Below are positions 659 to 62,513 of a stretch of 64,000 nucleotides of DNA, piece by piece. The stretch's first letter is position 1. The number at the start of each line of letters is the position of its first letter. Source of the DNA: Candidatus Babeliales bacterium (GTDB taxonomy: Bacteria; Babelota; Babeliae; Babelales; JANWKD01). The translations under genes were made by a program, and so were the position numbers. The DNA lies in assembly GCA_963722075.1 (NCBI GenBank), contig CAVRJM010000001.1, positions 896,001 to 960,000 on the forward strand, given 5' to 3'. The notes beneath the pieces are model-generated. The model was not told the origin of the DNA and made no database searches. It saw only the letters and a program-made list of their open reading frames with translations.

Positions 659-685
659 GATAACACTTATTAAAAAGGATTAGAT

Positions 686-2173: not shown

Positions 2174-2248
2174 GGATTGAGAGAAAGTAGAAAGGAGATG
2201 TAAAAGAGTGCAGAAAGATATAGAATAGAGAAAGTAGAGTATGAGCAT

Positions 2249-2434
2249 GATATAGAAGGCGGCGAATTTACTATTTTAAAATCAATCGATTGGAATAAAT
2301 TTGATTTTGATGTATTAGTAATCGAAGAAATTTTTGATTACCCAGAATTAAAAAAATTTCTTAAGATAAAGGATTTTTCAAATACAAGAATAGAAATGGA
2401 TATTATTTTTAGAAATAAATTATATATGCAATAA
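2249..2434 (+). pseudogene. Orphan C-terminal fragment of an FkbM gene
   Basis: Reads DIEGGEFTILKSIDWNKFDFDVLVIEEIFDYPELKKFL...MDIIFRNKLYMQ*; the first part is near-identical in DNA to ~1190-1300. Confidence 0.6.
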
Positions 2435-2446
2435 AAGGGGTTAGTT

Positions 2447-4129: not shown

Positions 4130-4196
4130 GTAAACTAGTTCTGTTCAGTTTTTGGAAAATTTTTAAAGTTTAAAGGTTATATGTTCATGGAAAAGC

Positions 4197-4341
4197 CGTC
4201 GTCACGAGCCGAATCCGTCGACGCCAAGGCTATGCCGGACAAGGGCGTGGAGACCGTGTCCGCCGTAGCTTGTAGCGAAGGCTGGATCCAGGCTAAAATT
4301 TTCAGGAAAACCTGGATTGCTTCGACAAGCTCGCAACGACG
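4197..4341. repeat. Nested palindromic repeat cluster (YGTC-tagged, REP/RPE-like)
   Basis: cgtcgtcacgagc...tccagg and cctggattgcttcgacaagctcgcaacgacg, with two tccg...gga hairpins inside. 4311-4341 is identical to 57896-57926. Confidence 0.85.
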
Positions 4342-4417
4342 CCCCTTAACAATTTACACCAATTGAGCAAATTTTTTGCATTTAGCAAACAATAAAAGAT
4401 ATAAAACCCAACAGAGT

Positions 4418-5221
4418 CTATAGCTTTTGTAATTCAATTGTCATAAACCAACCACTTGTATGCCACCCCAATAATGCCGCAGCGCTATAAGCCAAAAATC
4501 GAAATGGTTTTGATTTATTATAGAGCAAATCATAATTAGTTACGGTCGATTTAAGTTGTTTAATAACAACGGGATAATTTTTTAGAATTGTATGTATCTC
4601 TTTAATTGTATATGCTTTAGTGCCCAAACTTTCTTGATCATAATAAATTACCTGTGAAAAACTTCTTAAAAATTTTCCATGTTTGGCCGCTGCTAATAGA
4701 TATCTATACAATGCAAATAACGAATGTCGATTATAAATCATAATTTTTATACAGCCGCCTGGTTTTGTAACCCGTATAATTTCTTCAAGACATTTAATAG
4801 TATTTGGTGAATGATGAATAACGCCCCAGGAATAAACAATATCAAAAAAATTATCATGATAAGGAATTTGTTCAGCGTCAGCAACCTGAACCTCTTGAGC
4901 TTTCAAACCATATAACGATAACCGCTTTTTTACATTATCAATAGCTTCTTCAGTTAAATCGATTCCATACGCTTGAGTTCCGGCACGAACCCATTGTAAA
5001 AAATCAGTTCCAGCACCAATACCCACTTCAAGCAACTTTTTATCTTTAAAACGCGTAAATTGCGCAAAAGAAAAAATCTCAGGTTCTGCAGCATACCGGA
5101 GCTGCTCAATTTCTTCAAAATATTCTTTTGAAAATTTATCTTTTTTTGTGTGTTCTGTGCCACAGCTGGCATTATTCCAGTATTTATAGACTTCTTGTTT
5201 TAAGTTTTCGTTGTTCATCAT
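4418..5221 (-). CDS. Class I SAM-dependent methyltransferase (Methyltransf_11-like)
   Basis: LEVGIGAGTD, GIDLT, FDIVYSWGVIHH, KPGG. Confidence 0.85.
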   Translation of the reverse strand: MMNNENLKQEVYKYWNNASCGTEHTKKDKFSKEYFEEIEQLRYAAEPEIFSFAQFTRFKDKKLLEVGIGAGTDFLQWVRAGTQAYGIDLTEEAIDNVKKRLSLYGLKAQEVQVADAEQIPYHDNFFDIVYSWGVIHHSPNTIKCLEEIIRVTKPGGCIKIMIYNRHSLFALYRYLLAAAKHGKFLRSFSQVIYYDQESLGTKAYTIKEIHTILKNYPVVIKQLKSTVTNYDLLYNKSKPFRFLAYSAAALLGWHTSGWFMTIELQKL

Positions 5222-5257
5222 TATCTTTCTTTTTTATTTTTTTATGTCTTTATTTTA

Positions 5258-6511
5258 CTATTTTTCTTTTCGTATGATTATTTTATTAACATGATTATAC
5301 CAATCATACTGTTGTACTGCTTTTTTTCGAGCATTAAAACCCAATCGATCATAGGTATCATTATCTAGATCAATTAATGCACATGATGCCTGTATAAATT
5401 GTTGAATATTTTGAGGCTCTACTATAAAACCAATTTGATCGGTAATGGTATCGTTATAATAGATACCATTATTATTAATTCGTATTGCCGGTGAAATCAC
5501 TTCACTAATTTGTTCAAGATCTGATGCAATAACCGGCTTACCCATACTTAAATATTCAAAAATTTTTGTAGGCGAGCCAAAAAAAGGAGTACCATCAGGA
5601 TTTGGTTGTGTGGGTGATAAAAATGCATCACATGCTGCTAAATAGTTTTTAGCCTCATGTTGCGCAATAATACCGGTAAAGATAACTTTTTTTTTAACAA
5701 CATACTCTTGCAACGTTTCATAAGCGTATGTATAAAGAGGACCATCGCCAATCAATAAAAAGCGCGCTTGTGGTTTTTCTAATACTATTGCAGGGATTAT
5801 TTCCACTAAAAGCTCGATACCATGCCATTTATTAAAGGTACCAATAAAGCCAAAAACAAAGGTATTAGTTAGCGCTAATTGGTTGCGTATTAAGCACCGT
5901 TCCTTTTCTAAGAGCGCTGAATTAAAAGTGCTTGTATTTACTCCATTGGGATTTACTAAGATTTTTGTTTGATCTACTCCTCGTTGCATCAATTCATTTT
6001 TCAATGCTTGGGATACTACTATAATTTTATGGGCATAGTATATATTAACCCACTCTATTAATCGAATCGGCCATTTCAGTGTCATTCTTTTTTTAGTTGC
6101 CCAAAACGTATCAACCCATACTTCTGATCCATTATATTCTAAAATTAGGGGAACTTTTTTTATTAAACTGAGTAAAACACCGGTAGCATTTAACAAAGAA
6201 TAGCGTTGGTAAATAAAATCAATACTATTATTTTTCATACATCGTAACGCTTGGTTAATAAAAAACAGAGTAGATAACAAAGAAGCTATTTTTGTACGCA
6301 ATGATAATATATATTTTGGCAATGCTAATTGATGTACCCGTATAGGTAATGCTGACAGTTGCTCAATCATAACCGTAGAGGCTGTAATAACATCATACCC
6401 ATGGCCAATAAAACCCTGTATTACACCGAGTGTATGGCCAACCGAACCCCCGGCAACTAATGGTGTATAAGAAATATCAGTTCTTAAATAAAAAATAGTT
6501 TTCTTGCTCAT
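5258..6511 (-). CDS. Glycosyltransferase family 4
   Basis: VNPNGV, FIGTF..WHG, SPTKIFEYLSMGKPVIAS. Confidence 0.85.
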   Translation of the reverse strand: MSKKTIFYLRTDISYTPLVAGGSVGHTLGVIQGFIGHGYDVITASTVMIEQLSALPIRVHQLALPKYILSLRTKIASLLSTLFFINQALRCMKNNSIDFIYQRYSLLNATGVLLSLIKKVPLILEYNGSEVWVDTFWATKKRMTLKWPIRLIEWVNIYYAHKIIVVSQALKNELMQRGVDQTKILVNPNGVNTSTFNSALLEKERCLIRNQLALTNTFVFGFIGTFNKWHGIELLVEIIPAIVLEKPQARFLLIGDGPLYTYAYETLQEYVVKKKVIFTGIIAQHEAKNYLAACDAFLSPTQPNPDGTPFFGSPTKIFEYLSMGKPVIASDLEQISEVISPAIRINNNGIYYNDTITDQIGFIVEPQNIQQFIQASCALIDLDNDTYDRLGFNARKKAVQQYDWYNHVNKIIIRKEK

Positions 6512-8976
6512 GTATAATGCAATTCTTTAAGGGAAGAGTATACAACATTAAAAAATGCCTGTTTATCACCTGTTTTAAAAAGCTCTGTTCCAGCCGGCCG
6601 TTTACAAACATCGCTGGCTATTGCTCTTGTACCCACATGCAATGCTTCGGCAATACTAATACCAAAATTATCGCTTAAAGTAGGTCGTACAAAGAGATCT
6701 ACTCTTTTTAATAAAGGCCAATATTCATATTGACCCTGCAAGAGATACATTGAGTTTTTTAAATTTAAATCATTAATTTTTTTTACTAAATAAGAAAAGT
6801 ATGATTCATTACCTACTTGGGATAAAAAAATAATAAATCCTATAGTAGGAAATGTTTTTTTTAATTCAGCCGTAAGATCGATACACCATTCAATACCATA
6901 TAAATCAGTGTTGTTTAATAAAACTATTTGAAATGCATTTGCGCTAATAAGTGGCGTATGGCTATTTAAAAAATCTTCTAAGGTTACTGGATAACGCTTC
7001 ACCACTTCTTCTTCACCAGTATCAGGTGGTAAAAAAGGCGTTTCAATAACGGCAGAATCCTGTATAACCATGCCCTGCTCTTTATACTGTTCGACCGTCA
7101 CATTACCTATAAAAATCTGTTGGTAAACATAACGCATTAAAAAGGCAAAGATCGCTTTAAATTGATAGGAGCGGGAGGCTAAATAACGACAATCATGTTC
7201 AACTAAGAGAAGATTTGATTTTATTATATATGCACCAAGAACTACCGGAATCAGTTCATACAACCCTAACCATGAATAAGCAGTATGATAATAAATTAAG
7301 TGAGGACGCCTCACCAGCAAAAAAATAATAATACGAATCGCATGAATTAATTTTATCGTACAACAATTCATCGTATCAAAAATATATACGCTATTCTGTT
7401 GTTTTAAAAATTTATTTTTTACTCGCTGAATATGTACACTAATGCCCCCTAATGGAGGTGGATATGGGCCAAATAGTGCTATTTTTTTATTAAATATCCC
7501 TTCTGAATAGCGATGATACTCGTATTCAAGCGACACGGTATTTGTATTATTTGACATGTTAGTATACCAGTTTTTGAAAAACCATTCCTTTTCGTCATCA
7601 AGAAAAAATAAGACAACTATGATCGGCCAGGAACATAAAATAAGCACCGAATAATACCATGGTTTTGCATATAAAAAAATCAGTTGAAAAATTGCAAAAT
7701 AACAACACCCACTTATTAAAACTCGCATTATATGCTTTAAATTAAAGATATTTTTAAAAACGTTATTGCCATAATAAAAATTAATACCGCTAAATAGGGT
7801 AAACGCCATGCTGTTTATGAGTAGTATCATCCATATATTGAGCTGAAAAAAATAAGAACTCATTAAAAATAAACTGCTTTGAAATAATAAAATTAAAAAA
7901 GTTAAGAGCGGTATATAATGAGTATTTATTGAAATGCAAAAACTGCTTTGAAATATTCGCGCTGTATCTAATATCACCAGCATCAGAAAAAAAAGTGGAA
8001 AATAAATGAGCAACGTATGGTAGGTAGCCGGTATAAACCATTCTATTAAACAATGGGAACCTACCAATGAAGATAATCCTAAAAAGACTAAAATCATAAC
8101 ATAATAAGAAACAAGCCGGGACAAAATATGTTCTCGATTAACTTCTTTATCTGCATTGTATGATACAATCGGCCAGGCATCAATTAATGCAAGTGAAAAA
8201 AATTGATATAAAACCCCAAATCGCCACAATAATGAATAAACACCTAACATTTCATAACCACCATAGGTTTTTATAAAAAAGCGATCGATACTAAAAAAGC
8301 CAGTATATATGATACTGTATAACAACAATGGTACGCTAAAGCGCAATTGCTCTTTAAAGAGTTGAGATGAAAAAGCTACCTGTGATCCAAAAAAAATAAT
8401 AAAAAAAGGGGAAAAAAGCGACAATGAAATTAAATTTGCATAAAAAAATGAGTCAATACCAAAACCATTTTTAATACCATAAACCATGAAAGCAGTGGCA
8501 AGTATACTTTGGCTCGTAAATAATAATAAATAGGTGGTTAATTGTTCTTTAATACGTAAAAATGCCGTTGTTAAAGCAAAAAAGGAAAATAGGCAAATAT
8601 TAATAAAAGTAAGAAAAATATAACGATGCTGTATCGTTATTATACTAAAGTAAAGCAGGCATCCCAAAAACCCTGCTAAAAAAATCATACTGAGTAGCAC
8701 CATCAAACATGCATTACCAATTGCTTGCTTCAATTTAAATGGCTCATCCTTATATAAAAAATAAAACCTAATTAACGATGCTGAAGCACATGCAATGAGG
8801 GCTGTTGTTCCTAAAGAGAAAAAAGTTTGATAAAAATCCCAGATACCAAATTCTGTTAACGTTAACATGGAAAGAAAATACGGAAAAAATAGAAAACTAA
8901 TAGCGCGATTTATTGCTGAACTTAACCCATAAAAAAAGGTATTATGGGCGCCCCGCTTTATATAATGAGCTAACAT
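6508..8976 (-). CDS. Wzx/MOP polysaccharide flippase fused to a C-terminal GT4 domain
   Basis: About 470 aa of multi-TM flippase, then GPYPPPLGGISVH...DLFVRPTLSDNFGISIAEAL. Confidence 0.75.
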   Translation of the reverse strand: MLAHYIKRGAHNTFFYGLSSAINRAISFLFFPYFLSMLTLTEFGIWDFYQTFFSLGTTALIACASASLIRFYFLYKDEPFKLKQAIGNACLMVLLSMIFLAGFLGCLLYFSIITIQHRYIFLTFINICLFSFFALTTAFLRIKEQLTTYLLLFTSQSILATAFMVYGIKNGFGIDSFFYANLISLSLFSPFFIIFFGSQVAFSSQLFKEQLRFSVPLLLYSIIYTGFFSIDRFFIKTYGGYEMLGVYSLLWRFGVLYQFFSLALIDAWPIVSYNADKEVNREHILSRLVSYYVMILVFLGLSSLVGSHCLIEWFIPATYHTLLIYFPLFFLMLVILDTARIFQSSFCISINTHYIPLLTFLILLFQSSLFLMSSYFFQLNIWMILLINSMAFTLFSGINFYYGNNVFKNIFNLKHIMRVLISGCCYFAIFQLIFLYAKPWYYSVLILCSWPIIVVLFFLDDEKEWFFKNWYTNMSNNTNTVSLEYEYHRYSEGIFNKKIALFGPYPPPLGGISVHIQRVKNKFLKQQNSVYIFDTMNCCTIKLIHAIRIIIFLLVRRPHLIYYHTAYSWLGLYELIPVVLGAYIIKSNLLLVEHDCRYLASRSYQFKAIFAFLMRYVYQQIFIGNVTVEQYKEQGMVIQDSAVIETPFLPPDTGEEEVVKRYPVTLEDFLNSHTPLISANAFQIVLLNNTDLYGIEWCIDLTAELKKTFPTIGFIIFLSQVGNESYFSYLVKKINDLNLKNSMYLLQGQYEYWPLLKRVDLFVRPTLSDNFGISIAEALHVGTRAIASDVCKRPAGTELFKTGDKQAFFNVVYSSLKELHYT

Positions 8977-8989
8977 AAAATACTCTCAT

Positions 8990-10951
8990 TTATAATTGAA
9001 TTCCCATCAAATTTTGTATCACCCATAATTGTAAGGAATTATTACCTTCTTGTTTTTGATGCGTAACCAACAAATCATTAATTTTTTTGAAATCTAAATA
9101 TTCTTTCCAGGGGTTATTTTTTTCATGCATTTTATCAATAAAATATTGTTTAAAATAAGACCCTTCTTTAAACCACCGATGCGTAGGAGCAGCAAAACCC
9201 ATTTTTTTACGGTAAATCGTATCATGCGGTAATATACCTTCAGCCGCTTTTTTGAGGATATATTTGGTAATCCCATTATGATATTTAAGATCGGTTGGAA
9301 TCTGCAGCGCAAATTCAACTAAGGTGTGATCCAGAAATGGCACCCGTGCTTCTACTGAAGTAGCCATGGTCATTTTATCCACCCGCATTAACAGGAGTTC
9401 CGGAAGCCGCTGTTTTAATTCTAAATAACACATTGAAGTAAAAAAATCTGCTTGTGGATTACGTTCATACAGCTGCTGTAAATGATAATCAACTACGCAG
9501 TAGCTGGAATCATTTTGTTTAAAGGATGGGTAAATTTTCTCAATAATTGGATCATCATTATGTTCAAAAAAAAGTTCTTGCTTCAATACTGATTTTTTCC
9601 AAACCTCTGAAAATGCTGTCGCACCGCTCCAAAAAAGATGTTTATTTTCTGCCCAACTTTTTACTATAGCAAGTCTATTTTGTTTTTGGGGAAAAAAGTA
9701 TGCAGCAAGTTGATAGAATGATTGTTTTGCAAATGCCGGAATATAGCGCTGCGAATGTTTCCAATAACGATTATATACATTCAAATAATTTCCATACATT
9801 GTATAACCACAGAACAATTCATCAGATCCTTCCCCAACTTGCACCACCGTAACTCCAGCATCTTTGAGTAATTTTGATACGTAATATAAGGGAATGCAAA
9901 CACAATCGGCGATGGGTTCATCTTGATGAAATACCATCTTTTCAAAAAATTCAAATGCTTCTTTTTCTGAAATAATAATTTCATGATGATCAGTATTAAA
10001 ACGACGCGCAATTTTACGTGCCCATGAGATTTCACTATATTCAGGGCCATCATCAAAGGAAACGTTAAATGTTTTTACTTGATCAACGAGCTCTGACATG
10101 AGCGCAACATTTAAGCTTGAATCGATACCTCCCGATAAAAAAACGCCATAGGGAACATCTGACATCATTTGCCGTTTTATTGATGCACGCAATAATTGCT
10201 GTATTGTTTTTATACAAAACTGTTCATTAGTAAGTTGTTTTTGATCATACACGATTGCAGGCTTTAATGGCGTATACCATTCATGGAAACTAACATTTTT
10301 TTGTGCATCTACTTTAAGGTAATATGAGGCAGGTAGTTTGTAGACATGCTGGTAAAGGGTCATGGGAGCCGGCGTTACTAAATACGTTAAATAATGATAC
10401 AACGCTTTAGTATTAATTTCTTTGGTAATCCAGGGTAATTGCCATAATGCTTTAATTTCTGAAGCAAAGCTTAAAAAATCGCCATCAAGTGAAAAATAAA
10501 GTGGTTTAATACCCAGTCGATCGCGAATAAGAAAAAGTTTTTCGCGTTTAATATCATAAAGCACAATTGCAAACATGCCATCTAATTTGTTTAGTGCTTC
10601 TATGCCCCATTCTTTATATGCATAAATAATGGTTTCAGAATCTGAATTGGTCTGGTATTGATATCCTAATTGTTCAAGTTCTTTACGAAGTTGTGGATGA
10701 TTATAAATTTCACCATTACAGAGCACCGCTACGGTATGTTCTTTATCAAAGAGTGGCTGAAAACCTGCATCAGAAAGATCCATAATACTTAAACGGCGAT
10801 GAAACACTCCCAATTGCTGTGAATCTGAACTCCAAATCCGATAGCCATTTGGGCCGCGATGAGCAACGGTGTGTTGCATTTTTTCAAGTAACGATTGATC
10901 AATACCGCCAGCATTTTTTTTAATATGGAAGTAACCGCCCAGTCCACACAT
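8990..10951 (-). CDS. asnB: Asparagine synthase (glutamine-hydrolysing); probably a glycan amidotransferase given the locus
   Basis: N-terminal MCG, HRGP, HRRLSIMD, NGEIYN, LSGGIDSS, GEGSDELF, EARVPFLD. Confidence 0.92.
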   Translation of the reverse strand: MCGLGGYFHIKKNAGGIDQSLLEKMQHTVAHRGPNGYRIWSSDSQQLGVFHRRLSIMDLSDAGFQPLFDKEHTVAVLCNGEIYNHPQLRKELEQLGYQYQTNSDSETIIYAYKEWGIEALNKLDGMFAIVLYDIKREKLFLIRDRLGIKPLYFSLDGDFLSFASEIKALWQLPWITKEINTKALYHYLTYLVTPAPMTLYQHVYKLPASYYLKVDAQKNVSFHEWYTPLKPAIVYDQKQLTNEQFCIKTIQQLLRASIKRQMMSDVPYGVFLSGGIDSSLNVALMSELVDQVKTFNVSFDDGPEYSEISWARKIARRFNTDHHEIIISEKEAFEFFEKMVFHQDEPIADCVCIPLYYVSKLLKDAGVTVVQVGEGSDELFCGYTMYGNYLNVYNRYWKHSQRYIPAFAKQSFYQLAAYFFPQKQNRLAIVKSWAENKHLFWSGATAFSEVWKKSVLKQELFFEHNDDPIIEKIYPSFKQNDSSYCVVDYHLQQLYERNPQADFFTSMCYLELKQRLPELLLMRVDKMTMATSVEARVPFLDHTLVEFALQIPTDLKYHNGITKYILKKAAEGILPHDTIYRKKMGFAAPTHRWFKEGSYFKQYFIDKMHEKNNPWKEYLDFKKINDLLVTHQKQEGNNSLQLWVIQNLMGIQL

Positions 10952-11020
10952 ATTTGATTTCCTCTTTTTATATATACTGGTTATACCATGGAATATAAAA
11001 AAGAGAAAATGGCTCCGATT

Positions 11021-11575
11021 TTATTCATTTTTAGACAAAACTTTTTTTATTAATTTGCGTTGTCTGCCTTGAGATATCGAACTATAACATTTAAGTATGG
11101 CCGTACTAGATAATCCACCTATTACCAATTTTTTTGCAGTATGCTCCCATGAAGAAAGCTGGTGCGTTTTTCGTTTATATTCTAGCTTGCTAAAAGCTTC
11201 GTGCTTCTTTTCTTCTGATGCATTTTTTAATTCCTCAAGATTATGATGCATATCCTGGCTTATTTTATTTTTTACCATCAACCAAATTATTCCAGCAAAT
11301 GCACTACTTAACATTCCCGAATTAGTTTTTATTATTCGCCAGGTCATCTCCCATTTTGTTTCTAATTCTAATTCTAAATCCTCAGGAAGATCTCGAGGAT
11401 CAATAGGGGTACTCGTATCTTGCTTGCTACCATCAGGAAAGACAATAACGGAATTACGGCAAATAGACATCCTCCCATTACTATCGTAATTGACTGAATA
11501 TTCTATATCTTCTTCTTGAATCCCAAAACTATTCATACTAAAAAATAGCGTAAATGCTAAAACAAAATATTTCAT
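11021..11575 (-). CDS. Hypothetical exported/membrane protein
   Basis: 184-aa ORF with a signal peptide and two hydrophobic segments. Confidence 0.6.
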   Translation of the reverse strand: MKYFVLAFTLFFSMNSFGIQEEDIEYSVNYDSNGRMSICRNSVIVFPDGSKQDTSTPIDPRDLPEDLELELETKWEMTWRIIKTNSGMLSSAFAGIIWLMVKNKISQDMHHNLEELKNASEEKKHEAFSKLEYKRKTHQLSSWEHTAKKLVIGGLSSTAILKCYSSISQGRQRKLIKKVLSKNE

Positions 11576-11589
11576 TATAATTGTCCCTA

Positions 11590-12987
11590 TTATTTAAATT
11601 TAAATTTTTTTAATGCAATAAAACTCATGCCAAGTAAAAGAAATCCATGGCGAAACCGACTAATTTGCGTGGTGCCATATTGCCGATTTTTATAATGTAC
11701 CGGCATATCAAGAATCTTTAAATTTAATTTTGCTGCACCAAATAACAAATCAAAATCACCAAACGGATCAAATTCGCCAAAATACGCACGGTTTTTTACA
11801 ATTTTTTCATAATCTGATTTAAATAATACTTTGGTACCGCATAAGGTATCTTTTATTGGCTGTCCTAATAACCATGAAAAACCTATACCAAAACAATAAT
11901 TTGCAATCAAATTTAAAAATCGCATCGCTTCAGATTCCATGCCATAAACCAACCGCGAGCCGTTAATAAAATCTGCTTTTTCTACTAACGCATCATAAAA
12001 TTTAGGTAATTCTTCGGGCGGCACTGTTAAATCAGCATCAAGTATCATTAAGATATCTCCTTGTGCCTTTGCAAATCCCAAGCGCACCGCATCTCCCTTC
12101 CCTTTGCCAGATTGCACATAATAAGAAATTTTTTTATGTGGATTTTCTTGATGTACTCGTTTAATTTCTTCAAGGGTGCCGTCCTTGGAATGCCCTTCTA
12201 CAAAAATAAATTCGGTCGCCGTTCCCAATAACGGACAGCGATCAATAATCGCTTGAATATTACCACGCTCATTACGACAGGGGACTATAACTGAAACAGA
12301 ATAGTTTCTTTCAATTTTTTTTATGGCTGGGCGTGCAACAACCCATTGACTAAGGCAAAACAAATTAATGATGGGAAGTGGCGCAATAAAAGTGTTAACC
12401 AGCCACGAAATGAGCGGAATATACACCGGAAGTAAAATATTACGTTCATGCGTTACCACTTCAAATCCTGCTAAATATAAAAAATTAGCAATATCTTGGT
12501 ACGATAACCAGTTTTTAAGCGCTGTTTTTCGCCTTAATGAACATTTTTGAGCTAACCATAAAATGGGTTCCCATAAAACTGAATAAAAATCAATTACTAT
12601 TTTGGTAGTATCAGTACAAAACGGAATTAATTGTTTAAAAAGCTCTTGCACATCATCAGCTTCCATTGTAGCCAAATTAATTAGTACATAATCAAACGGC
12701 TCTTTATGCGGAATATTTTTTACTGAACCAGAATAAAATTCAAAATGAGGATAGAGCTGTTTTGCTTGACTCACTGCTAACGAATCTTCATCAACCCCAA
12801 CGCCAAATGAAGGATGCACGGCATCTAATAAAAAACCATTTTTTCCATTAACTAAAAGCACTCGTGATTCTTTTGGTACAAAAAAACGATATAATCGTGC
12901 CATTAATGAATGGTAATACCAATTTTTTTTCAACCAATAGGCATACGAAATGCGTTCATGATAAATTGTTTGTGCTTCCATACTCAT
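11590..12987 (-). CDS. Degenerate methyltransferase-like domain fused to a GT2 glycosyltransferase
   Basis: C-terminal VIVPCRNE, GKGDAVRLG, LDADLTVPP, DTLCGTK, FGDFDLL. Confidence 0.8.
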   Translation of the reverse strand: MSMEAQTIYHERISYAYWLKKNWYYHSLMARLYRFFVPKESRVLLVNGKNGFLLDAVHPSFGVGVDEDSLAVSQAKQLYPHFEFYSGSVKNIPHKEPFDYVLINLATMEADDVQELFKQLIPFCTDTTKIVIDFYSVLWEPILWLAQKCSLRRKTALKNWLSYQDIANFLYLAGFEVVTHERNILLPVYIPLISWLVNTFIAPLPIINLFCLSQWVVARPAIKKIERNYSVSVIVPCRNERGNIQAIIDRCPLLGTATEFIFVEGHSKDGTLEEIKRVHQENPHKKISYYVQSGKGKGDAVRLGFAKAQGDILMILDADLTVPPEELPKFYDALVEKADFINGSRLVYGMESEAMRFLNLIANYCFGIGFSWLLGQPIKDTLCGTKVLFKSDYEKIVKNRAYFGEFDPFGDFDLLFGAAKLNLKILDMPVHYKNRQYGTTQISRFRHGFLLLGMSFIALKKFKFK

Positions 12988-32132: not shown

Positions 32133-33401
32133 ATGTCTATGAAATATAATTATTCTCTTCTTGCTTTATTTGTATTTATTTTTTTTACGGCTCAATCACT
32201 TTTTGCAGCAAATCCAACATTTTTTGTATTAGAAACACAATTAAACCGACTAGCTCAGGAATTAACTGCTTTACAAAACACCTTGATGCCTCAACAAAAA
32301 TATACACAAACTGAAGCATTACTCAGTATTCCCGCAATTAAAAATCTGGTATATAAAAAATACCCTTATTTAAAAACAAAGCGCGGCAACAAATTTTTGA
32401 AAAAAATTCTGCGCATTGAAAAAAAATACAAAGCAACTCATTATGTTTTTTATCATGCATTCACTAAAGCATGGATGGTTCCACAGGATCTTATGTATGA
32501 ACTAACCAAAAAATTACGCCCGCTCACGTCCAAATTACCACTTTTTCGTTTCTTACGCTGGCAAGATTTTGAACGAATCACCGCTGCCGATTTTTTAATG
32601 AAGGAAATTAGTTCTGAGGGGCTAATTAATGATAATGATCCTAAGCACCGCGCATCATTACTTTCAGTAAATTTAGCGCTTTTTGGCAACATAGATTTTG
32701 AAGGAGAAAGTACTTTTCACTATTTCATGAATCCTACCAGCCATGCTACGGTAAGCCCAGAAATCATTAAAGGCATTCTTGCCATCTTTGATCTGCCATT
32801 AACGCATCTTGATGAGATTCTTGAGCTTGATGAAAAATATTTATCTCCTGAAAAAAAGGCGGGCGGCAAACCAAAAGCTCAAATTTTATTACAGATCTTT
32901 GTTCCTAAAAAATTAGTAGATGACGTAGGGTATCTTTCTTGGGTGCAAGGAATTCCGTATGAAAAAGAATTAGTTGCTATGGTGGATAATATGGCACGAA
33001 CATCGCTTGCACATCAACCTGGATTTCTAACCGGAACGCAACCTATTTTAAAACAGATAAAAGATCGCTTTAAAAACGATAAAGAAAAAGACCCATTATA
33101 TGCAAAAATTATGAAACATATAAAAAAAGGTAAATTTAGACTATCAACATTTTTACAAAAATATACCAATGAACCCGCTACTATTCCAGGTATTGCTAAT
33201 ATCCAAGCACGCTTATTATTTACTGACACACTGCTCTTGAACCCCAGCAGCAATATTCTTTTTTATACACATGACTATATTCCTAGGGCAGATAAAGAAA
33301 AATATAAAAAAGAACTTAATAGTATTGTACAATCCATTGTTTTAGAAAAATTAAGTAAAAATAAGCCTTCTCAACCAAAGAAGAATGCTCCAAGTAAGTA
33401 A
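32133..33401 (+). CDS. Exported protein with N-terminal zipper tag; possible ADP-ribosyltransferase-like domain
   Basis: Signal peptide, LETQLNRLAQELTALQNTL, then VFYHAF / LLSVNL / LLQIFVP / IQARLL. The ORF is secure; the function is speculative. Confidence 0.5.
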   Translation: MSMKYNYSLLALFVFIFFTAQSLFAANPTFFVLETQLNRLAQELTALQNTLMPQQKYTQTEALLSIPAIKNLVYKKYPYLKTKRGNKFLKKILRIEKKYKATHYVFYHAFTKAWMVPQDLMYELTKKLRPLTSKLPLFRFLRWQDFERITAADFLMKEISSEGLINDNDPKHRASLLSVNLALFGNIDFEGESTFHYFMNPTSHATVSPEIIKGILAIFDLPLTHLDEILELDEKYLSPEKKAGGKPKAQILLQIFVPKKLVDDVGYLSWVQGIPYEKELVAMVDNMARTSLAHQPGFLTGTQPILKQIKDRFKNDKEKDPLYAKIMKHIKKGKFRLSTFLQKYTNEPATIPGIANIQARLLFTDTLLLNPSSNILFYTHDYIPRADKEKYKKELNSIVQSIVLEKLSKNKPSQPKKNAPSK

Positions 33402-33476
33402 TTATGATGATTAAATAGTAAGTTTAGTTGGAGCTTTTTAAACATTATAAATTTATGCACAAAGCTTAAATGGTAT

Positions 33477-33618
33477 TGGATCACCACGTTCCGTCTACGT
33501 TAATCCAGCCGTCGCTCAAAAGCTATGGCGGAGTAAACAACTTCGCCGGACAGGCGCTTGCTACTATCAGAATCCGTCGTAGCCTTAACGAAGTCAAACG
33601 CCGCTCCTCGTGACGACA
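33477..33618. repeat. Doubly nested palindromic repeat
   Basis: Outer tggatcaccacg...ctcctcgtgacgaca with inner tccg...gga units. Confidence 0.85.
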
Positions 33619-33669
33619 TCCGTCGAAAAAACCTTTTCAGTAATTAAAGCGCAAGCAATGAACTTGCGC

Positions 33670-34251
33670 TTATTTTTTTTCCATAACTTCATATTCAAAA
33701 TCAACAAACCCGTCATCTCTTCGCACTTCCTTAAATCCATGGCGTAAATATAATTTTATTGCTGCAGAATTGCTCGTACGGGTCGTTAAATCTATTTTAC
33801 TGCTACCACGTTTTATCAAATCTTGAACTGCATAATCTAATAATTTATCAGACCATCCTTTAGAGCGAAATTCAGGATTTACATAAATAAATCTAATATG
33901 CCCGTGATAAAACTTTTTTTGCATATAAATGACAAAACCGACCGGTTTATCATCTTCATAAGCAACTTTTATGGTAAAATTTCCTTTATGGCTGGGCCGT
34001 TTTGAGGATGCGCGGTTGGCAAGCATATACGCAACGTCATAATCGTTCCCCTCAATGAGCCAATACCAATCGCGTTGAAAGCTTTCTATAATAAAGGGCG
34101 TATCACGTATTTCAACAAAATCGATAATTCCTGATCGAGCGTGATAAAAATAGCGATATCCATAAAATCCGCCTACGGCAGCTCCAATAAGAATCGCGCC
34201 TATTATTATTTTTTTTATAATATTGTTTCTTTTTGACATAAAATAGCTCAA
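33670..34251 (-). CDS. GNAT (RimI-like) N-acetyltransferase with an N-terminal membrane anchor
   Basis: YVNPEFRSKG, NSAAIKLYLRHGF; basic N-terminus followed by a TM helix. Confidence 0.8.
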   Translation of the reverse strand: MSYFMSKRNNIIKKIIIGAILIGAAVGGFYGYRYFYHARSGIIDFVEIRDTPFIIESFQRDWYWLIEGNDYDVAYMLANRASSKRPSHKGNFTIKVAYEDDKPVGFVIYMQKKFYHGHIRFIYVNPEFRSKGWSDKLLDYAVQDLIKRGSSKIDLTTRTSNSAAIKLYLRHGFKEVRRDDGFVDFEYEVMEKK

Positions 34252-34348
34252 TTAATAATATTGATTTATTACAGTATTTAATCAAATTTTTTCTATTCTA
34301 CAATTATATACAAGTATATCAAAAAAATTATATTCGACGTAAGTTATT

Positions 34349-35110
34349 TTATTTTTTAAACCATGGGATAAGCATACTGGTATGTTTTTTATATTCTTGA
34401 TATTGTGCATTATGTTCAAATACACGCTCAAGCAGGGGAACCCCAGTAAAAAAGCGCAATAATATAGTAATAGTTACCGGTGCAATAATAGCAAGATATC
34501 CATACGGAACCGATAGCGCTATACAAAAAATGCCCCACCACATCGTAATTTCACCAAAATAATTGGGGTGGCGAGAATAGTACCATAAGCCTTCTTGCAT
34601 AATCTTCCCTTTGCTTTCTGACTTATGCAAAAAAAGATACAGTTGATAATCAGCAATTGATTCACAATAAAATCCGATCACCCATATTAAAAATCCTACT
34701 AAATCGAGCATATTCAACCAAGTAGCAACTGGACTGTTATTAACAGCAATAGAAGGTGTTGACATAATTAACAGCATTACCCCATTCATAATAAAAATCC
34801 ACCAAAAGCTAATCAATAATGCATACTTGCCCCATTGCTTTTGCCATTCAATAAAGCGCGGATCCGCTCCTTTTTTGTAGCGCATATATACATATACAAT
34901 TAAACGCGTAGCCCACAAAAAAATAAGCGTGGTAATAAGCAAAGATCGTGGCGTATGGAATCCATAATAATAGGTATAAAGCGTTACTAATAACACACCG
35001 CCGCCCCAGGTAAAATTACCAATACTATTATCTTTTTTAACTTGCACGGTAACGAACATGGTTGTTAAATAAACACTAATTAATATAATGCCGCCTATAA
35101 TTTCATTCAT
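34349..35110 (-). CDS. DUF1295 membrane protein (steroid 5-alpha-reductase/ICMT-like fold)
   Basis: DPRF, ESIADYQL, GLWYYSRHPNYFGE, GVPLLE, LIPW. Confidence 0.85.
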   Translation of the reverse strand: MNEIIGGIILISVYLTTMFVTVQVKKDNSIGNFTWGGGVLLVTLYTYYYGFHTPRSLLITTLIFLWATRLIVYVYMRYKKGADPRFIEWQKQWGKYALLISFWWIFIMNGVMLLIMSTPSIAVNNSPVATWLNMLDLVGFLIWVIGFYCESIADYQLYLFLHKSESKGKIMQEGLWYYSRHPNYFGEITMWWGIFCIALSVPYGYLAIIAPVTITILLRFFTGVPLLERVFEHNAQYQEYKKHTSMLIPWFKK

Positions 35111-35286
35111 AGTTATATCCTTTTTATTAATAGTAATAATCTTAGTTAGTATAATCATTCATATAGTTAAAAAAAAAGATACTTGCCAAATAATTATTGA
35201 CAGGAAATATTTAAAAAATGGTAATATGTAATAAGAAACGTATTAATGTAAATTAAATTTTATTTTTGATGATGCTCCGGCAAAGA

Positions 35287-35423
35287 TGTCATCCCGAGCG
35301 TAGCGTGGGGATCCATTAATAAAATGAAAATACCTCATTAATGGATTGCTTCGACGAGCTCGCAATGACAGCCTCAATTTTTTGCTGCTTATTCCTTGTC
35401 ATTCCGAATGCAATGTGGGGATT
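35287..35423. repeat. Inverted pair plus a degenerate third YGTC palindrome
   Basis: tgtcatcccgagcgtagcgtggggatcca; tggattgcttcgacgagctcgcaatgaca; tgtcattccgaatg...gggatt. Confidence 0.85.
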
Positions 35424-35467
35424 ATGTTAATTCGGGAAAAATATTTAATTTATTAGAGGAAGATTAT

Positions 35468-36955
35468 ATGAAAAGATTTTTATTATTATTATTTTTTTTC
35501 TCATGTTATTTACAGGCGCAACTTAAAGATGAGTTAATGGCATTACAAAACAAACTTATCGAACTTAATTCAGCGCTCACCGCAGTAAAACCCGTTAAGC
35601 AAAAGACCCCTTTAGAACTAGTAACGGATATAGAACTTGGCTTACTTGCTGATTTTTCTAAATTAGTAAATGCTTCTAACCAATTTAAGTTAAAAAAAAG
35701 CTTCCCTACCATTAATAATTTAATTTCTGTAATTGCGCAAAATGATAAAGACAAGCAAAAACAAATAGCATTGGATGCTAATTCTACTTACCCTATTATG
35801 CATCGTGACGTGCTTACGCTCATCGATAATTTTTTAGATGATAAAAGAAAATTTGGTACCCCCATTGAAAAAAATCTGTATAAAAATATGGATCGTAATG
35901 CTTTAATTAATCGACTTCTTACCAAACGTCCACTTATGTTTATGACCGCGCAAGATCAATATCTTTTGCGCGATGGAATAACAGAAGGATACGGCGGCTT
36001 TGATGAAATTGGTAGACAAAATGAAAAATCACCCTTCATCCTTAAGGATTATATTTCTTATAGTGAAATGCAAATTGCTGCCTTATTAGGCGTGAGCGTT
36101 CCTACCTATTTTATTAATGATGGCGATCGCAGCAATAAAGGAATACCAGGAAAACCAGGAACTTATGAACCACATGGCATCTATGCAGGCCTGGTTGGCG
36201 CACGCTTTGAACGTCCGAATTTGATGGAATGGCAACAAATAATAATTACCCCTGAGCAAAATAGTGCTCAATATGGTTATGGATTAACAAATAAAACCCC
36301 ACTCGCACTAGGGCGATGGGAAAAACTATATGGTCTTAAATTTCCTACGTATCAAGAAGCAGTCAGTGATATATCAGGTCGATTTATTCCAATTAAGGAA
36401 GGCTTTTTTGATAAAGATGCTTATATAAAACGAATCGAATTAGTTATAGAACCATTTTTATTAGATGCCCAGAAGCGCGGCTCACAAGCCTATAAAAAAG
36501 TATATATCCGCGTTGTAGGATTAGGTTTAGGGGTATGGAAAATAATAGATGAGCAAGAACAATTTATGCTTGAAGCATATAGAAACATATTAAACCGACA
36601 TAATTTATCAGAAATTTCAGATATCGATTTCATATTTTTTAGCAAATATGCTTCTTTAGGAGGAATAACTGCTGAAACTGATAATGATATATATAAAAGC
36701 CCGTATAATTCGATAAGAATTCATTTTACCGAAAATAAGCCAGCAACGCCATTAAAAGGGCCTCATGCTGGCAAATTATTATATTGTAATTATGCATGGG
36801 ATGGCAATTCATATCCGGGCAATGAATATTGGGCTGGAATGTTAGCTGCTTCAGGAGATCCCGCAGCTGCTTGTTGTTCTACCATTCCTGAATTACAAAA
36901 TCCTGAAATCAACCATAATGTTTCAGCAATATATATGCGCACATACCCGCAATAA
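35468..36955 (+). CDS. Exported DUF4804/MavL-like macrodomain protein (putative ADP-ribosyl hydrolase) with N-terminal zipper tag
   Basis: RBS gagga before ATG 35468. Motifs recalled from DUF4804: KRPLMF, GARFER, GLGLGVW, YAWDGNSYPGNEYW, SGDPAAACCS, ELQNP. Confidence 0.72.
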   Translation: MKRFLLLLFFFSCYLQAQLKDELMALQNKLIELNSALTAVKPVKQKTPLELVTDIELGLLADFSKLVNASNQFKLKKSFPTINNLISVIAQNDKDKQKQIALDANSTYPIMHRDVLTLIDNFLDDKRKFGTPIEKNLYKNMDRNALINRLLTKRPLMFMTAQDQYLLRDGITEGYGGFDEIGRQNEKSPFILKDYISYSEMQIAALLGVSVPTYFINDGDRSNKGIPGKPGTYEPHGIYAGLVGARFERPNLMEWQQIIITPEQNSAQYGYGLTNKTPLALGRWEKLYGLKFPTYQEAVSDISGRFIPIKEGFFDKDAYIKRIELVIEPFLLDAQKRGSQAYKKVYIRVVGLGLGVWKIIDEQEQFMLEAYRNILNRHNLSEISDIDFIFFSKYASLGGITAETDNDIYKSPYNSIRIHFTENKPATPLKGPHAGKLLYCNYAWDGNSYPGNEYWAGMLAASGDPAAACCSTIPELQNPEINHNVSAIYMRTYPQ

Positions 36956-37047: not shown

Positions 37048-38133
37048 ATGGGTGTATGTAATAACATTCAAAAAATATCTTTTTTATTCATATTTTTACT
37101 GCAATTTTCAACTATTTGGGCTATGCAAGAACCAACAACAAGCGTTAAGCCTCCTCCGACTCCCTTGCACTATCAACCGATTCCATTACGGTATCAACTA
37201 GCCTATTCCTTAGCAAAAGAGGTACTTAATAAGGAAAAACCAATTAGTTATCTTAGAAAGTTATCTCCTGATTTAATACAATTTACCTTCTTACTTATCA
37301 ATAGTAACTTAGACCTCGAGAAGGCATTCCAAAATGCAATCGAAAAACCAAAAATTTTTACTTATTATGATATAAAAAACTTACTTGATGCTGGTGCTAA
37401 TAAATATCTTAATACCAGTACATATCCATTAAAGAAAGCTATAGAATCAGACAATCATTGGTTATTTGATCTACTACTTAGTTATGGAGCACCAGTAAAT
37501 TTAAAAGACCAATATGGTAGAACTCCACTCATGCTTGCTGTTATTTGGGACCGGCCTGATTTTGTTAAAACGTTATTAGAAGCAGGTGCCGACCCTAACA
37601 TCTTAACCAATGCACATGTTTCACCACTTATAATTGCAGCAGAAAGGGGAGATCCTGAAATCGTCTCCTTATTATTAAAAAGTGATGCTGATGTTACTAT
37701 CATAGGTGGAGTAGGTCTACCAAAAAAAACAGCCTTATCAGAAGCAGTAAAATATAACAATGTTGCAATTGTTAATCTGTTGCTTCAATATAAGGCAGAT
37801 CCCAACCTGGAAATTCGTTCTACTTATAGTATTCCACTTATTCAGATTGCTGCTCAAAATGGATTTAACGATGTATTAGTCGCATTACTTAATGCTGGCG
37901 CTAATATTAATAGCTCAGAGCGAAATAATAATACAACAGCACTTATCCAAGCAGTACAAGCAAAAAAAATAGACACGGTACAATTATTACTTGAGTATGG
38001 TGCAGATAAAACACAACGTGATAAGGCCGGAAAAACTGCACTTGATTATGCATTTGCCAACCGTGATTCAGAGATTATTAAATTATTAGCACATAAAGAA
38101 TTAGCAGGTATGCCTGAATTAGTTGAAGGATAA
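37048..38133 (+). CDS. Exported ankyrin-repeat protein
   Basis: Signal peptide ending TIWA-MQE; repeated GRTPLMLA/LLEAGADPN units. Confidence 0.9.
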   Translation: MGVCNNIQKISFLFIFLLQFSTIWAMQEPTTSVKPPPTPLHYQPIPLRYQLAYSLAKEVLNKEKPISYLRKLSPDLIQFTFLLINSNLDLEKAFQNAIEKPKIFTYYDIKNLLDAGANKYLNTSTYPLKKAIESDNHWLFDLLLSYGAPVNLKDQYGRTPLMLAVIWDRPDFVKTLLEAGADPNILTNAHVSPLIIAAERGDPEIVSLLLKSDADVTIIGGVGLPKKTALSEAVKYNNVAIVNLLLQYKADPNLEIRSTYSIPLIQIAAQNGFNDVLVALLNAGANINSSERNNNTTALIQAVQAKKIDTVQLLLEYGADKTQRDKAGKTALDYAFANRDSEIIKLLAHKELAGMPELVEG

Positions 38134-38156
38134 TAAAATTATAAAGAGGTTAAGTA

Positions 38157-39254
38157 ATGGTATCAAATAACATGAGAAAAATATTTTTTCTATTACTACT
38201 TACCGCTTCTTTTTCTGTATCTGCAATGGAAAGTTCAGAAGCTAATAAAGAACCCGCAATAGCAACGCAGCGCAATCAATTAAAAAAAATAGCAATGCGC
38301 CGTAAAGCATATACTTTAGCTAAAGATATTTTAGACAATAAAAAATCTTATGATGATTTAAATACAGTGCCCCAAGAATTACATAATTATACAAAACTAT
38401 TAGTTGAAGCTCATTTAAATTTCGATAAAGCATTACAAAAAGCAATAAAGCATATTAATCGTTACTCTCGTGATGACATAAAAAATTTAATAGAAACGGG
38501 AGCTAATGAATATATTAAGACTAGTCCATATCCATTAATTTCTGCTATAGAATTAGGTATTTTAGGTAATTATTGGCTATTTGATCTTCTACTGGCCCAT
38601 GGAGCATCAGTAAATCTACAAGATAAAGATGGCAGAACTCCACTCTATCATGCTGTTTTATTACAACAACCATATTTTGTTAGAGCACTATTAAAGGCAG
38701 GAGCTGACCCTAATATCTTAAATAGACAAAATTTCTCACCATTAATAGTGGCATCAGGATTTGGAAATAGAAAAATAGCTTCCCTCTTATTAAAATATGG
38801 TGCCAAGGTAGCTATTAAGGGGGGAAATCAGAAACAAACAGCTTTATCGCAATCAGTACAAAATAATCGCGTTGCAGTCGTTAAATTATTGCTTGATTGC
38901 TGTGCAGATCCAAATGAAGAAATACCGTCTACTGATCCAACTTATACTATTCCGCTTATTCAAGTTGCTGCTCAATATGGATTTAACGATATAATAGTGG
39001 CATTACTTCAAGCAAATGCAAATATTAACCTATTAGGTCATGGAAATTATACTACAGCGCTCATACGAGCAGTACGAGCAAAAAAGATAGATACGGTAAA
39101 ATTATTACTTGAACGCCACGCCGATAAAACAATACGAAACAAAGTAGGAAAAACTGCGCTTGATTATGCAATTGACAACCGTGATCCAGAAATGATTAAT
39201 TTATTAGCATCAGCAGAATTAGCAAGTATGCCCGAATTAGTAGAAGCGCCTTAA
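38157..39254 (+). CDS. Exported ankyrin-repeat protein, tandem paralog of 37048
   Basis: Signal peptide ending SVSA-MES; colinear ankyrin repeats. Confidence 0.9.
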   Translation: MVSNNMRKIFFLLLLTASFSVSAMESSEANKEPAIATQRNQLKKIAMRRKAYTLAKDILDNKKSYDDLNTVPQELHNYTKLLVEAHLNFDKALQKAIKHINRYSRDDIKNLIETGANEYIKTSPYPLISAIELGILGNYWLFDLLLAHGASVNLQDKDGRTPLYHAVLLQQPYFVRALLKAGADPNILNRQNFSPLIVASGFGNRKIASLLLKYGAKVAIKGGNQKQTALSQSVQNNRVAVVKLLLDCCADPNEEIPSTDPTYTIPLIQVAAQYGFNDIIVALLQANANINLLGHGNYTTALIRAVRAKKIDTVKLLLERHADKTIRNKVGKTALDYAIDNRDPEMINLLASAELASMPELVEAP

Positions 39255-45020: not shown

Positions 45021-45284
45021 ATGAAAAAATTATCACTTTATTTTTTAACTTTTTTATGTCTTATATTTGCCACTAAGCTTTGTCCTATGAACGCCTTTAA
45101 AAATCGGTTTAAACTCTGCTCATGGAAAACAGCAGCATTCGGCGCTTTTGCCGGAACCTGTACCGCTGTACATTATGGCTTATCTTATGTTCCAGCGATG
45201 GCGCATATTGTCGGAACAGCAATTTTTGCCACAAATTTATTTACTGAAAAATGCACCGCATCAACTGCCTCTTCAAAAGGATAG
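45021..45284 (+). pseudogene. Truncated paralog of the 44036 peptidase
   Basis: 45087-45182 matches 44102-44197 at 92/96 nt; no HExxH domain follows. Confidence 0.6.
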
Positions 45285-45739
45285 TGAGTGTGAATATATT
45301 GTTGTATCGTGGTTCTTATCTGCGTAAAGTAATCAACCATATATTCTTTAAACTCTTTTGCCAGACTCTTATCAGTTGCCCATAATTTTTTATGTACCGC
45401 ATTACAACGTTCAATTAAAGGCTTCAAGAATATTCTTTCAAGGGTAAATAATTGACGATATGAAAAATCTTCAACGTTCCATTCCAACTGATCTGTTATC
45501 ATAATAAGATATTCAAATAATTCTTCTGAAGGGTTTTTTTCAAATTCTACCAAAGCAATAAAAACGGCTTCGATCTGGTTTTGAAGTTGCTCAAATTTTT
45601 TTGAACTTATTGGCTTTAATTGATTTTGTAAATTTTTGAGCTTTTCCTGTAATTGAGAAAGTGATTGTTCAAGGGCCTGGCTTTTAAGAAGATTCGCAAA
45701 GAATAATACTGCAATAATGGTCATTAATAGCTTCTTCAT
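45185..45739 (-). CDS. Exported helical protein with N-terminal zipper tag
   Basis: RBS aagga; signal peptide; LEQSLSQLQEKLKNLQNQL. Confidence 0.65.
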   Translation of the reverse strand: MKKLLMTIIAVLFFANLLKSQALEQSLSQLQEKLKNLQNQLKPISSKKFEQLQNQIEAVFIALVEFEKNPSEELFEYLIMITDQLEWNVEDFSYRQLFTLERIFLKPLIERCNAVHKKLWATDKSLAKEFKEYMVDYFTQIRTTIQQYIHTHYPFEEAVDAVHFSVNKFVAKIAVPTICAIAGT

Positions 45740-50818: not shown

Positions 50819-51505
50819 ATGATGAAGTTTGTTAATATGGTAAAAAAAATTATTATAGCCAGTTCGCTTTTGGTAATAACGCAATCAACCACTTCTTTGG
50901 AGCAAACGTTGCAACAACTCAAAACAAATTTATCTTCGCTTAATTTTCATCTGCATAAACCGCCGCAAGCATGCTCTTCATCACTTTCTGCCATTGAATG
51001 GGATATACATTTAGAAAAGGCCGCTCAACAAGGAATTATCGCCCAGAAGTCATCAATAGATCGTTTATTTGATGCCATTGACGATCAGATCATACAATTT
51101 AAAAAAGCGATAACTCATTTTAAGCAATCACTTGAAAAATTTAATGGTGATATAGCAAACAAATCAAATGAACAGCTGGAAGCTGAATTTAAACAGATAA
51201 TAAAAACATATAAATCAATTAATAATGATGAATTAACTACCTTATTATTTACGTTAAAAGATAATAAAGATCCTTATACAATTACCGATAAAAAGTATGC
51301 CCAAAAGCTTTTACGTAAAATTAAAAGAATAAAAAAAGAATTAAAAAATTATATGGAAGCGCAAAAAAAAGCTGCCTTCTATAATGATGAACAACTTAGA
51401 AAAAAATATAATACATTGATCAAAAATGAAATTCAAAGCTTTAAAAATTTTAAAGCATTTATAGAAAAATTTAGAAAAAAGTGGCAAATGAATATTCTAT
51501 TCTAA
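50819..51505 (+). CDS. Exported helical protein with N-terminal zipper tag
   Basis: Signal peptide; LEQTLQQLKTNLSSLNFHL. Exact start uncertain. Confidence 0.6.
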   Translation: MMKFVNMVKKIIIASSLLVITQSTTSLEQTLQQLKTNLSSLNFHLHKPPQACSSSLSAIEWDIHLEKAAQQGIIAQKSSIDRLFDAIDDQIIQFKKAITHFKQSLEKFNGDIANKSNEQLEAEFKQIIKTYKSINNDELTTLLFTLKDNKDPYTITDKKYAQKLLRKIKRIKKELKNYMEAQKKAAFYNDEQLRKKYNTLIKNEIQSFKNFKAFIEKFRKKWQMNILF

Positions 51506-51520: not shown

Positions 51521-52081
51521 GTGAAAAAATATCTATTATTATCGCTTTTTGCTTCCATGTTGACGACGTTACGAGCTGGTGAATTAAGTGATGAGTTGAT
51601 GCAATTAAAAGCAAAATTGGATGATTTGCAAAATAGTTTTGGCGGAATTGGTAGAGCTAAAAAACAATTAGATCCAATAATAAATGCATTGAATGTAGCC
51701 ATTTCAAATTTGTCTGATTCATATAGAGGTGAATTTAATAATGCACTCATTTGGTTCCTAGCAGACCCTGAATCCATTAACGATTTTCGTAAAACGTATT
51801 ATTCATTTGAGGAAAAAATAGCTGAAGTAATACCACCCCTTAAATCTTTAAATAATTTTCAAGGACCTAAGAATAGTATACTTGATAAAGATTTGGTAAA
51901 GGACACTCTTAAACCGTTAATTGAAATTATGGAAGTTACAAAACAAAGGTTAGAAGCTATAGGAGGGATGCCCACAGAAATTTTAAACAAGTTCACTGGC
52001 GCTAACTATAAAGTAGTTCAAGACTTAGTTCGAAAAATAACTTCAGCATGGGGAATTAAAGTTGAAGTTCAAACAAAATAA
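51521..52081 (+). CDS. Exported helical protein with N-terminal zipper tag
   Basis: aggag RBS with GTG start; LSDELMQLKAKLDDLQNSF. Confidence 0.65.
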   Translation: MKKYLLLSLFASMLTTLRAGELSDELMQLKAKLDDLQNSFGGIGRAKKQLDPIINALNVAISNLSDSYRGEFNNALIWFLADPESINDFRKTYYSFEEKIAEVIPPLKSLNNFQGPKNSILDKDLVKDTLKPLIEIMEVTKQRLEAIGGMPTEILNKFTGANYKVVQDLVRKITSAWGIKVEVQTK

Positions 52082-61240: not shown

Positions 61241-61777
61241 TTAGCTAATGATGTTACCTATACTAGTAAACTGTATCAATTTTTTTTCATCTTTGGAAAT
61301 GGAAGACGGTAATAATTCTATAAGATTCATCGCTTGAAACAAATTTGTTTTTTCCAATGTTTGTATGCAATCGAGTAACAATTCGATCTCGTTAATCTCT
61401 CCTTTTAATTCTATAGCTTTTGCATCAATCGTTATTGATGAAAATCGCATACTGGCAGGTATACTGTTAGCTAATGCTATTAAATATGCACTATAATCTT
61501 GTTTATGAGAGAATGCGGTAACTTTTTTTCGTCGTTTTTTATTTTTTTTGAGCTGCTTTTTAATATTCTTATTTTCTTCATGCACCACATTAGTAACCTG
61601 CTCTGTTAAGCACTGAGCCTCATTACGTACCTTATACCAAGATAGTAATTGAACCGCCGTCATTATCGATAATAGCATAATAAGGGCACCAATAAGCACG
61701 CTGCTGCACCAAATCCAGTTACGCCATTTTTTATATTCATGAGGCGGTAAAGCTGAGATTAAATTACTGGAGTTCAT
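61241..61777 (-). CDS. PilN-like (type IV pilus/T2SS alignment) protein
   Basis: NLI motif, single TM, coiled coil, then a PilN-type LxxxIP..FSSI...ELKG..LE..LF region. Confidence 0.6.
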   Translation of the reverse strand: MNSSNLISALPPHEYKKWRNWIWCSSVLIGALIMLLSIMTAVQLLSWYKVRNEAQCLTEQVTNVVHEENKNIKKQLKKNKKRRKKVTAFSHKQDYSAYLIALANSIPASMRFSSITIDAKAIELKGEINEIELLLDCIQTLEKTNLFQAMNLIELLPSSISKDEKKLIQFTSIGNIIS

Positions 61778-62513
61778 GATGAGTTCCTAATAAAAACAAG
61801 CCTGCACTTGCCAGTATTAATTCCTTCTCTTTAGAAAAAAGTTGGCTAAAATGTGCATTTGATTCAAATAAGGCATCACTACCATAGGCATTGCATAAAG
61901 TATTACAATAGCTTGCTAATTCCTGCACCGTTTTAATTTGTTTTATGTGCTGATCTGCTAAAGGTTGATTTAAAAAAGAAAGCATATATAAAAGAGCACG
62001 ATTTTTTGAGGTGATGGTACAACAATGAAAAGGAACTTTAAGCGCTAATAATTGATATTGAAAAAGAATTTCTCGCCGTAACCCAAACAGATAAAAAAAA
62101 TGTTTTTGTTCTTGATAATTAGCATATAACGGCGCATAATTCCATATCACTTTTTGAGCAATGGCAGGATCATGCGGTGGCTCATCAGCAGTATGCCACC
62201 GGCAATCTTCCCAAATATGATTTTCTGCAAAGGCAAGGGAGACATATGGATTTTTTAATTTATGCGCTTGTAGAAAATCACTAATAATTTCTGATAAATG
62301 AGTAAGATTAAAAATTATTGATTGATTAATCTGATTAAGCCCAAGCGATTTTACTGCCCATGCTTTTGGGATAAAGACATTTGAAGCTTTGCCAAGCCAC
62401 ATGATTAATAATGATGAATTGCCGATTATAATCGTTACATAATTATCGCGCCACCACACGGTATGATCTCTCCTTTTTATTTTACTATAGCGATTATAAT
62501 GTAACTTTTTCAA
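61764..62513 (-). CDS. Hypothetical protein, possibly a divergent PilM
   Basis: Overlaps the PilN-like gene; C-terminal ASAGLFL resembles PilM ends. Confidence 0.4.
   Translation of the reverse strand: MKKLHYNRYSKIKRRDHTVWWRDNYVTIIIGNSSLLIMWLGKASNVFIPKAWAVKSLGLNQINQSIIFNLTHLSEIISDFLQAHKLKNPYVSLAFAENHIWEDCRWHTADEPPHDPAIAQKVIWNYAPLYANYQEQKHFFYLFGLRREILFQYQLLALKVPFHCCTITSKNRALLYMLSFLNQPLADQHIKQIKTVQELASYCNTLCNAYGSDALFESNAHFSQLFSKEKELILASAGLFLLGTHHELQ

Follow-up and report, generated by a model that had tools for sequence, protein, structure and literature searches.

Do two neighboring genes for exported proteins, one resembling an ADP-ribosyltransferase (ART) and the other an ADP-ribosylhydrolase, form a dedicated writer/eraser pair? 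The question is raised by a stretch of 64,000 nucleotides (the window) from a Candidatus Babeliales bacterium (GCA_963722075.1, contig CAVRJM010000001.1, positions 896,001 to 960,000). Its two open reading frames (ORFs) of interest are 32133 (32133..33401, + strand, 422 aa), predicted to encode an exported member of a large family that has no name and possibly an ART-like fold, and 35468 (35468..36955, + strand, 495 aa), a MavL-like/DUF4804 macrodomain protein and predicted arginine ADP-ribosylhydrolase. Each carries a short leucine heptad helix (the tag) behind its signal peptide. A sequence-only reading had proposed that 35468 erases the host ADP-ribosylation written by 32133, in the manner of Larg1 and Ceg3; the form weighed here is a dedicated pair acting on arginine. 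We favor, with moderate confidence, a different account: the two are independent exported effectors in two variable slots, 35468 being an arginine eraser, 32133 possibly a non-arginine NAD enzyme, and the helix a portable sorting or delivery motif.

Chemistry of the two proteins

The DUF4804-like identity of 35468, already noticed from the letters, is firm. The protein scores 386.9 bits against PF16062 (DUF4804; cut-off 27) over profile positions 2-426 of 448, and both signature motifs of the MavL/DUF4804 class, taken as given in the relevant passages of PMC10951314, are intact: the diphosphate-binding loop at 36512..36538 (+, residues 349-357) and the catalytic loop at 36797..36832 (+, residues 444-455). 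In family score and in both motifs it is thus like the known hydrolases of the class (PF16062; Drosophila 8dmt and 8dmu; MavL; Larg1), from which it differs by its Sec-type signal peptide and helix tag. It lies much nearer the Drosophila proteins (two structures, E 4e-77 and 2e-73) than MavL (E 3e-4); judged by sequence, it adds one more member to an established family. All four DUF4804-class enzymes assayed cleaved arginine-ADP-ribose only, validity across the class being left open in those passages (PMC10951314); by analogy with the tested members, 35468 is predicted to be specific for this linkage. Elsewhere in the phylum, some genomes (G065, G137, G172, G205) have an expanded set of MavL-like genes with fusions into long ORFs, which reach up to ~1,370 aa in G076.

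The ART-like claim for 32133 fares differently: searches of Pfam, NCBIfam and PDB gave it no sequence support, and what stands is structural and weak. When the predicted model was searched against known structures, all 12 matches with at least 107 aligned residues were ART-fold chains, at weak Z and 8-12% identity. The modeled core (32439..33272, +) appears to have six strands in an ART-like order with a His on strand 1, and conserves H108, S178-x-N180, E192, Y197, Q254 and Q358-x-R360. H108, present in 136 of 184 aligned family members, falls on predicted strand 103-111, its register to ART strand 1 being drawn from aligned ranges only. Position 358, which the model's strand assignment puts at the inferred place of the catalytic Glu, is Q in 166/184 members and E in 4/184; R360 is kept in 183/184. 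Polar positions that hardly vary across the family thus hint at an active site.

One has to weigh a second account, in which 32133 has neither ART fold nor ART activity and either folds in a new way or serves in binding without catalysis. We regard this as a real but lesser possibility, since the longer structural matches are exclusively ART-fold chains, the apparent strand order and the His on strand 1 agree with that fold, and the conserved polar residues are suggestive of an active site. The 32133 domain also recurs as repeated cassettes, among other repeated modules, in P0071, a 7,623-aa protein of GC-rich type that looks, from its architecture, like a secreted multi-toxin protein.

The family, which comprises >2,000 clusters, is found in 109 of the 251 phylum genomes, often in multiple copies, and has no Pfam or NCBIfam model. 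Two uncharacterized viral proteins in BFVD, A0A481Z173 (Mimivirus LCMiAC02) and A0A1V0SG32 (Hokovirus), match the 32133 model, which suggests that the family may be shared with giant viruses of protists. The source genome (G000) holds six more members, all untagged (G000:C1:557373-563998, 1165279-1167249 and 1384520-1386979; C3:9702-11060). Five of the six are long, with the domain C-terminal and “LEFC/LIFC” replacing Q358-A-R360, so that some untagged members have a Glu at or adjacent to that position.

What 32133 would do with NAD+ is narrowed by its residues. Where the arginine-specific, cholera-toxin-like enzymes have R-S-E, 32133 has His at 108 and Q at 358; where the diphtheria-toxin-like enzymes have H-Y-E, it has Q358-A-R360 and no strand-5 catalytic Glu. 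From the latter group and from the DarT/ParT folds it differs by Gln-x-Arg at the inferred Glu position, by S-x-N on strand 2 and by large helical insertions, besides the low identity and weak Z. The ExE motif is described as common among ARTs that modify arginine (PMC8120803). Because 32133 lacks R-S-E and ExE while the tested DUF4804 enzymes act on arginine only, the two chemistries are mismatched, and 32133 is unlikely to make the arginine mark. It may bind NAD+ through H108, S178-x-N180 and Y197, and the Gln at the catalytic-Glu position would more likely go with NAD+ cleavage or modification of a non-arginine acceptor.

Co-occurrence and gene order in the phylum

The case for a dedicated pair begins with proximity. 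The two genes do lie on one strand 2 kb apart (2,066 bp), as the sequence-only reading had it, both are tagged, and their orthologs are both tagged in two relatives as well (G003 and G004); the model of 32133 has some likeness to the ART fold, and no canonical ART was detected in the genome. A relative of the same genus (G001, 93% complete) gave no match to either query. Co-occurrence and synteny across the phylum, proposed as the check on the pair, turned out against it. Among the 251 genomes, scored for ART-like proteins by profile match and for erasers over the cut-off (one sub-cut-off eraser row was excluded from the counts), 109 have an ART-like protein and 36 an eraser; both occur in 18 against 15.6 expected (Fisher p=0.47), which is chance. 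Half of the eraser genomes (18/36) have no ART-like profile match, and no eraser was seen in 91 of the 109 genomes with an ART-like protein. The close subfamily of 32133 does coincide with the eraser in 8 genomes versus 3.3 expected (p=0.008), a figure that includes kin, which are not independent; once the source genome's bacterial family is removed, p=0.29.

Gene order gives the same answer. The order gpmI-slot-GNAT-slot-truA-typA (gpmI, truA and typA being names that we presume for these genes) is conserved in four genomes of the same family (G001, G002, G003, G004). Both slots beside the GNAT gene hold different genes in each of the four, many with signal-like starts, and in none of the four does an ortholog of 32133 or 35468 sit in either slot. 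The orthologs are ~35 kb apart in G003 and ~600 kb apart in G022; in G002 and G004 the two fall on different contigs. With co-occurrence at chance, no synteny in 4/4 relatives, a putative writer without R-S-E or ExE and a tag found on some 30 other proteins, we consider the dedicated pair quite improbable. The proximity is best explained if each of the two variable slots received one of these cargo genes. In G003 the typA homolog (L143, G003:C1:167680-169480) is split into two ORFs, and in G004 it is apparently shortened, which may reflect a frameshift or an assembly error.

What lies around the two genes was in good part correctly described before. Pfam confirms, between them and on the minus strand, the GNAT acetyltransferase (PF00583, 33670..34251), a fixed part of the locus in 4/4 relatives, and a DUF1295 membrane protein (PF06966, 34349..35158), not at this locus in the four relatives; downstream follow two tandem ankyrin-repeat paralogs (37048..39254, +) with signal-like N-termini and no tag. 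The repeat clusters between the genes are real but not particular to the locus: an intergenic palindromic repeat (33474..33628) and a REP-like inverted repeat (35287..35370) both occur genome-wide, with 41 blastn hits for the first and 124 for the spacer containing the second, self included in each, and the spacer repeats have no Rfam match.

A leucine helix at the ends of predicted exported proteins

Signal peptides were claimed for both proteins, and both are Sec-like by eye and by our own hydrophobicity rule: residues 1-25 of 32133 (32133..32207, +) and 1-17 of 35468 (35468..35518, +). Each is followed by a 19-residue leucine heptad helix, at residues 33-51 of 32133 (32229..32285, +; helix 29-51 in the model) and 19-37 of 35468 (35522..35578, +). 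That these are the “same” zipper does not hold. Only 6/19 residues are identical, against 7.6 on average for 210 tag pairs in the genome, of which 194 are at least as alike. The window alone holds three further, unrelated predicted exported proteins with the N-terminal tag (45185..45739, -; 50819..51505, +; 51521..52081, +).

To count tags we used a plain heptad pattern, derived from the source genome, just after the signal (N) or within the last 30 residues (C); profile-based counts agree. Among the 725 signal-type ORFs of the source genome, as called by our hydrophobicity rule, 22 are tagged N-terminally and 8 C-terminally, versus 0/571 other ORFs at either end and 12 of 16,605 internal windows. 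Relatives were counted in independent samples of ~400 kb each. G003 gave 5 N and 3 C tags in 204 signal-type ORFs and none in 209 others; G014, of another bacterial family, gave 6 C tags in 197 and 1 in 175 others, this lone ORF being an ART-like protein whose signal the rule missed. The G022 sample held one doubtful match of 221, and the G009 sample showed no enrichment. Within the ART-like family the tag is N-terminal in the source's bacterial family and C-terminal on homologs in G014 and G048. Since only 3/119 eraser and 4/184 ART-like homologs carry it, the tag is a lineage-level addition.

Could the helix be just a coiled coil through which exported proteins oligomerize or cluster into bundles, with no bearing on the choice of export route? 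The clean heptad leucine pattern is what such an element would have, one G033 protein bears a double-length copy, and the tag is patchy whereas GspC homologs are widespread. The helix is, however, confined to terminal positions in ORFs that have a signal, where it accompanies unrelated domains, and it swaps ends within one family. This makes an accessible tag more probable than a dimer interface peculiar to one family, and we think the bundling account doubtful.

The proteins that carry the tag are varied. A scan of 35 found clear families for 8 (two USP deubiquitinases, RING, Macro, NADAR, NUDIX, DnaJ and exonuclease/phosphatase), one marginal match, and no family over the cut-off for the other 26. 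USP and RING domains make sense only inside a eukaryotic cell; hence some of the tagged proteins, at the least, are aimed at the host. In the source genome the tag is on 2/2 USP, 1/2 RING and 1/2 Macro proteins and on 0/40 ankyrin proteins; among 13 tagged candidates from relatives, ankyrin accounts for 2 clear and 3 weak matches and DnaJ for 1. Three tandem predicted exported paralogs with a similar N-terminal region (L055, G000:C1:313431-316318) carry the tag toward their C-terminal end, with a NADAR domain fused to the first of them, and one tagged ORF of only ~73 aa (G000:C1:824080-824331) is possibly a truncated gene.

Export route and known systems

Export by Sec plus an unknown route, rather than by Dot/Icm, had been suggested. 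Sec-type export is supported. DotA was not found in the genome, in agreement with the suggestion, by a search that gave no match in any control either. For the second step there is a candidate, the genome having gspC, two gspD (secretins), gspF and gspG of a type II secretion system (T2SS); a Sec signal by our rule together with T2SS genes is as expected of type II substrates. Passages on relatives agree: in Babela massiliensis no secretion system besides T2SS was detected (PMC4378268), it belongs to the TM6 core (PMC4776705), and 44% of the proteins of one relative have signal peptides (PMC6561590). A gspC-secretin-PilM-like-secretin cluster lies at G000:C1:1149061-1162199 between two C-tagged genes, one for a USP protein 1.3 kb upstream and the other 1.2 kb downstream.

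On the reading of independent effectors, the signal peptide would carry each protein through Sec, leaving the helix at the new N-terminus or, in other proteins, at the C-terminus, where it might be read by the T2SS or act at a host or vacuole membrane. There 35468 would strip ADP-ribose from host arginine and, with three other tagged proteins whose domains (Macro, NADAR, NUDIX) process ADP-ribose or nucleotides and with the two deubiquitinases, may undo host modifications. A bolder version, that in some Babeliales lineages a short, linear, position-independent amphipathic helix is a T2SS effector-delivery signal marking a host-directed arsenal of deubiquitinases, a RING ligase, ADP-ribose erasers and a new Glu-less ART-fold family that giant viruses share, is speculative, and we think it rather unlikely.

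The named homologs of 32133 and 35468 are mostly from Babeliales/TM6/Dependentiae, characterized in the accounts consulted as intracellular parasites of protists, and the source bacterium is likely such a parasite. In this the locus recalls the effector/metaeffector pairs Ceg3-Larg1 and SidE-MavL of Legionella, as sketched in PMC10951314: an intracellular parasite in which a predicted exported eraser of this class lies near a possible ART-fold gene. It differs in that the putative writer lacks R-S-E and ExE, the genes are neither linked nor co-inherited in relatives, and the system at hand is a T2SS, DotA being undetected in the control-less search. Exported USP and RING proteins were previously noted for Babela massiliensis, and the gsp genes fit the published T2SS accounts (PMC4378268, PMC4776705); the passages of these two that were consulted mention neither a terminal helix common to such substrates nor an effector of ART-like or DUF4804 type, and “ADP-ribos” is found 0 times in either main text. 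The literature found, mostly in non-subscription journals, holds no description of the ART-like family or a portable terminal helix, and these are the undescribed parts.

Elsewhere in the window, a cluster at 77-12987 contains what we take to be FkbM-like methyltransferase, glycosyltransferase and asparagine-synthetase-like genes, probably with a surface polysaccharide role. At 61241-62513 (-), away from the gsp clusters, two ORFs presumably resemble PilN/PilM-type assembly proteins.

In the usual view, type II secretion recognizes its substrates through folded, ill-defined signals, and a short helix able to change from one terminus to the other would offer a linear signal open to test. The tag would also give a sequence handle for listing effectors in a phylum of protist parasites that has hardly been cultured; in the set scanned here, 26 of 35 tagged proteins have no family. 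If the 32133 family has the ART fold, it adds a Gln-Arg type of active site. Adjoining ART-like and macrodomain genes need not form a writer/eraser pair.
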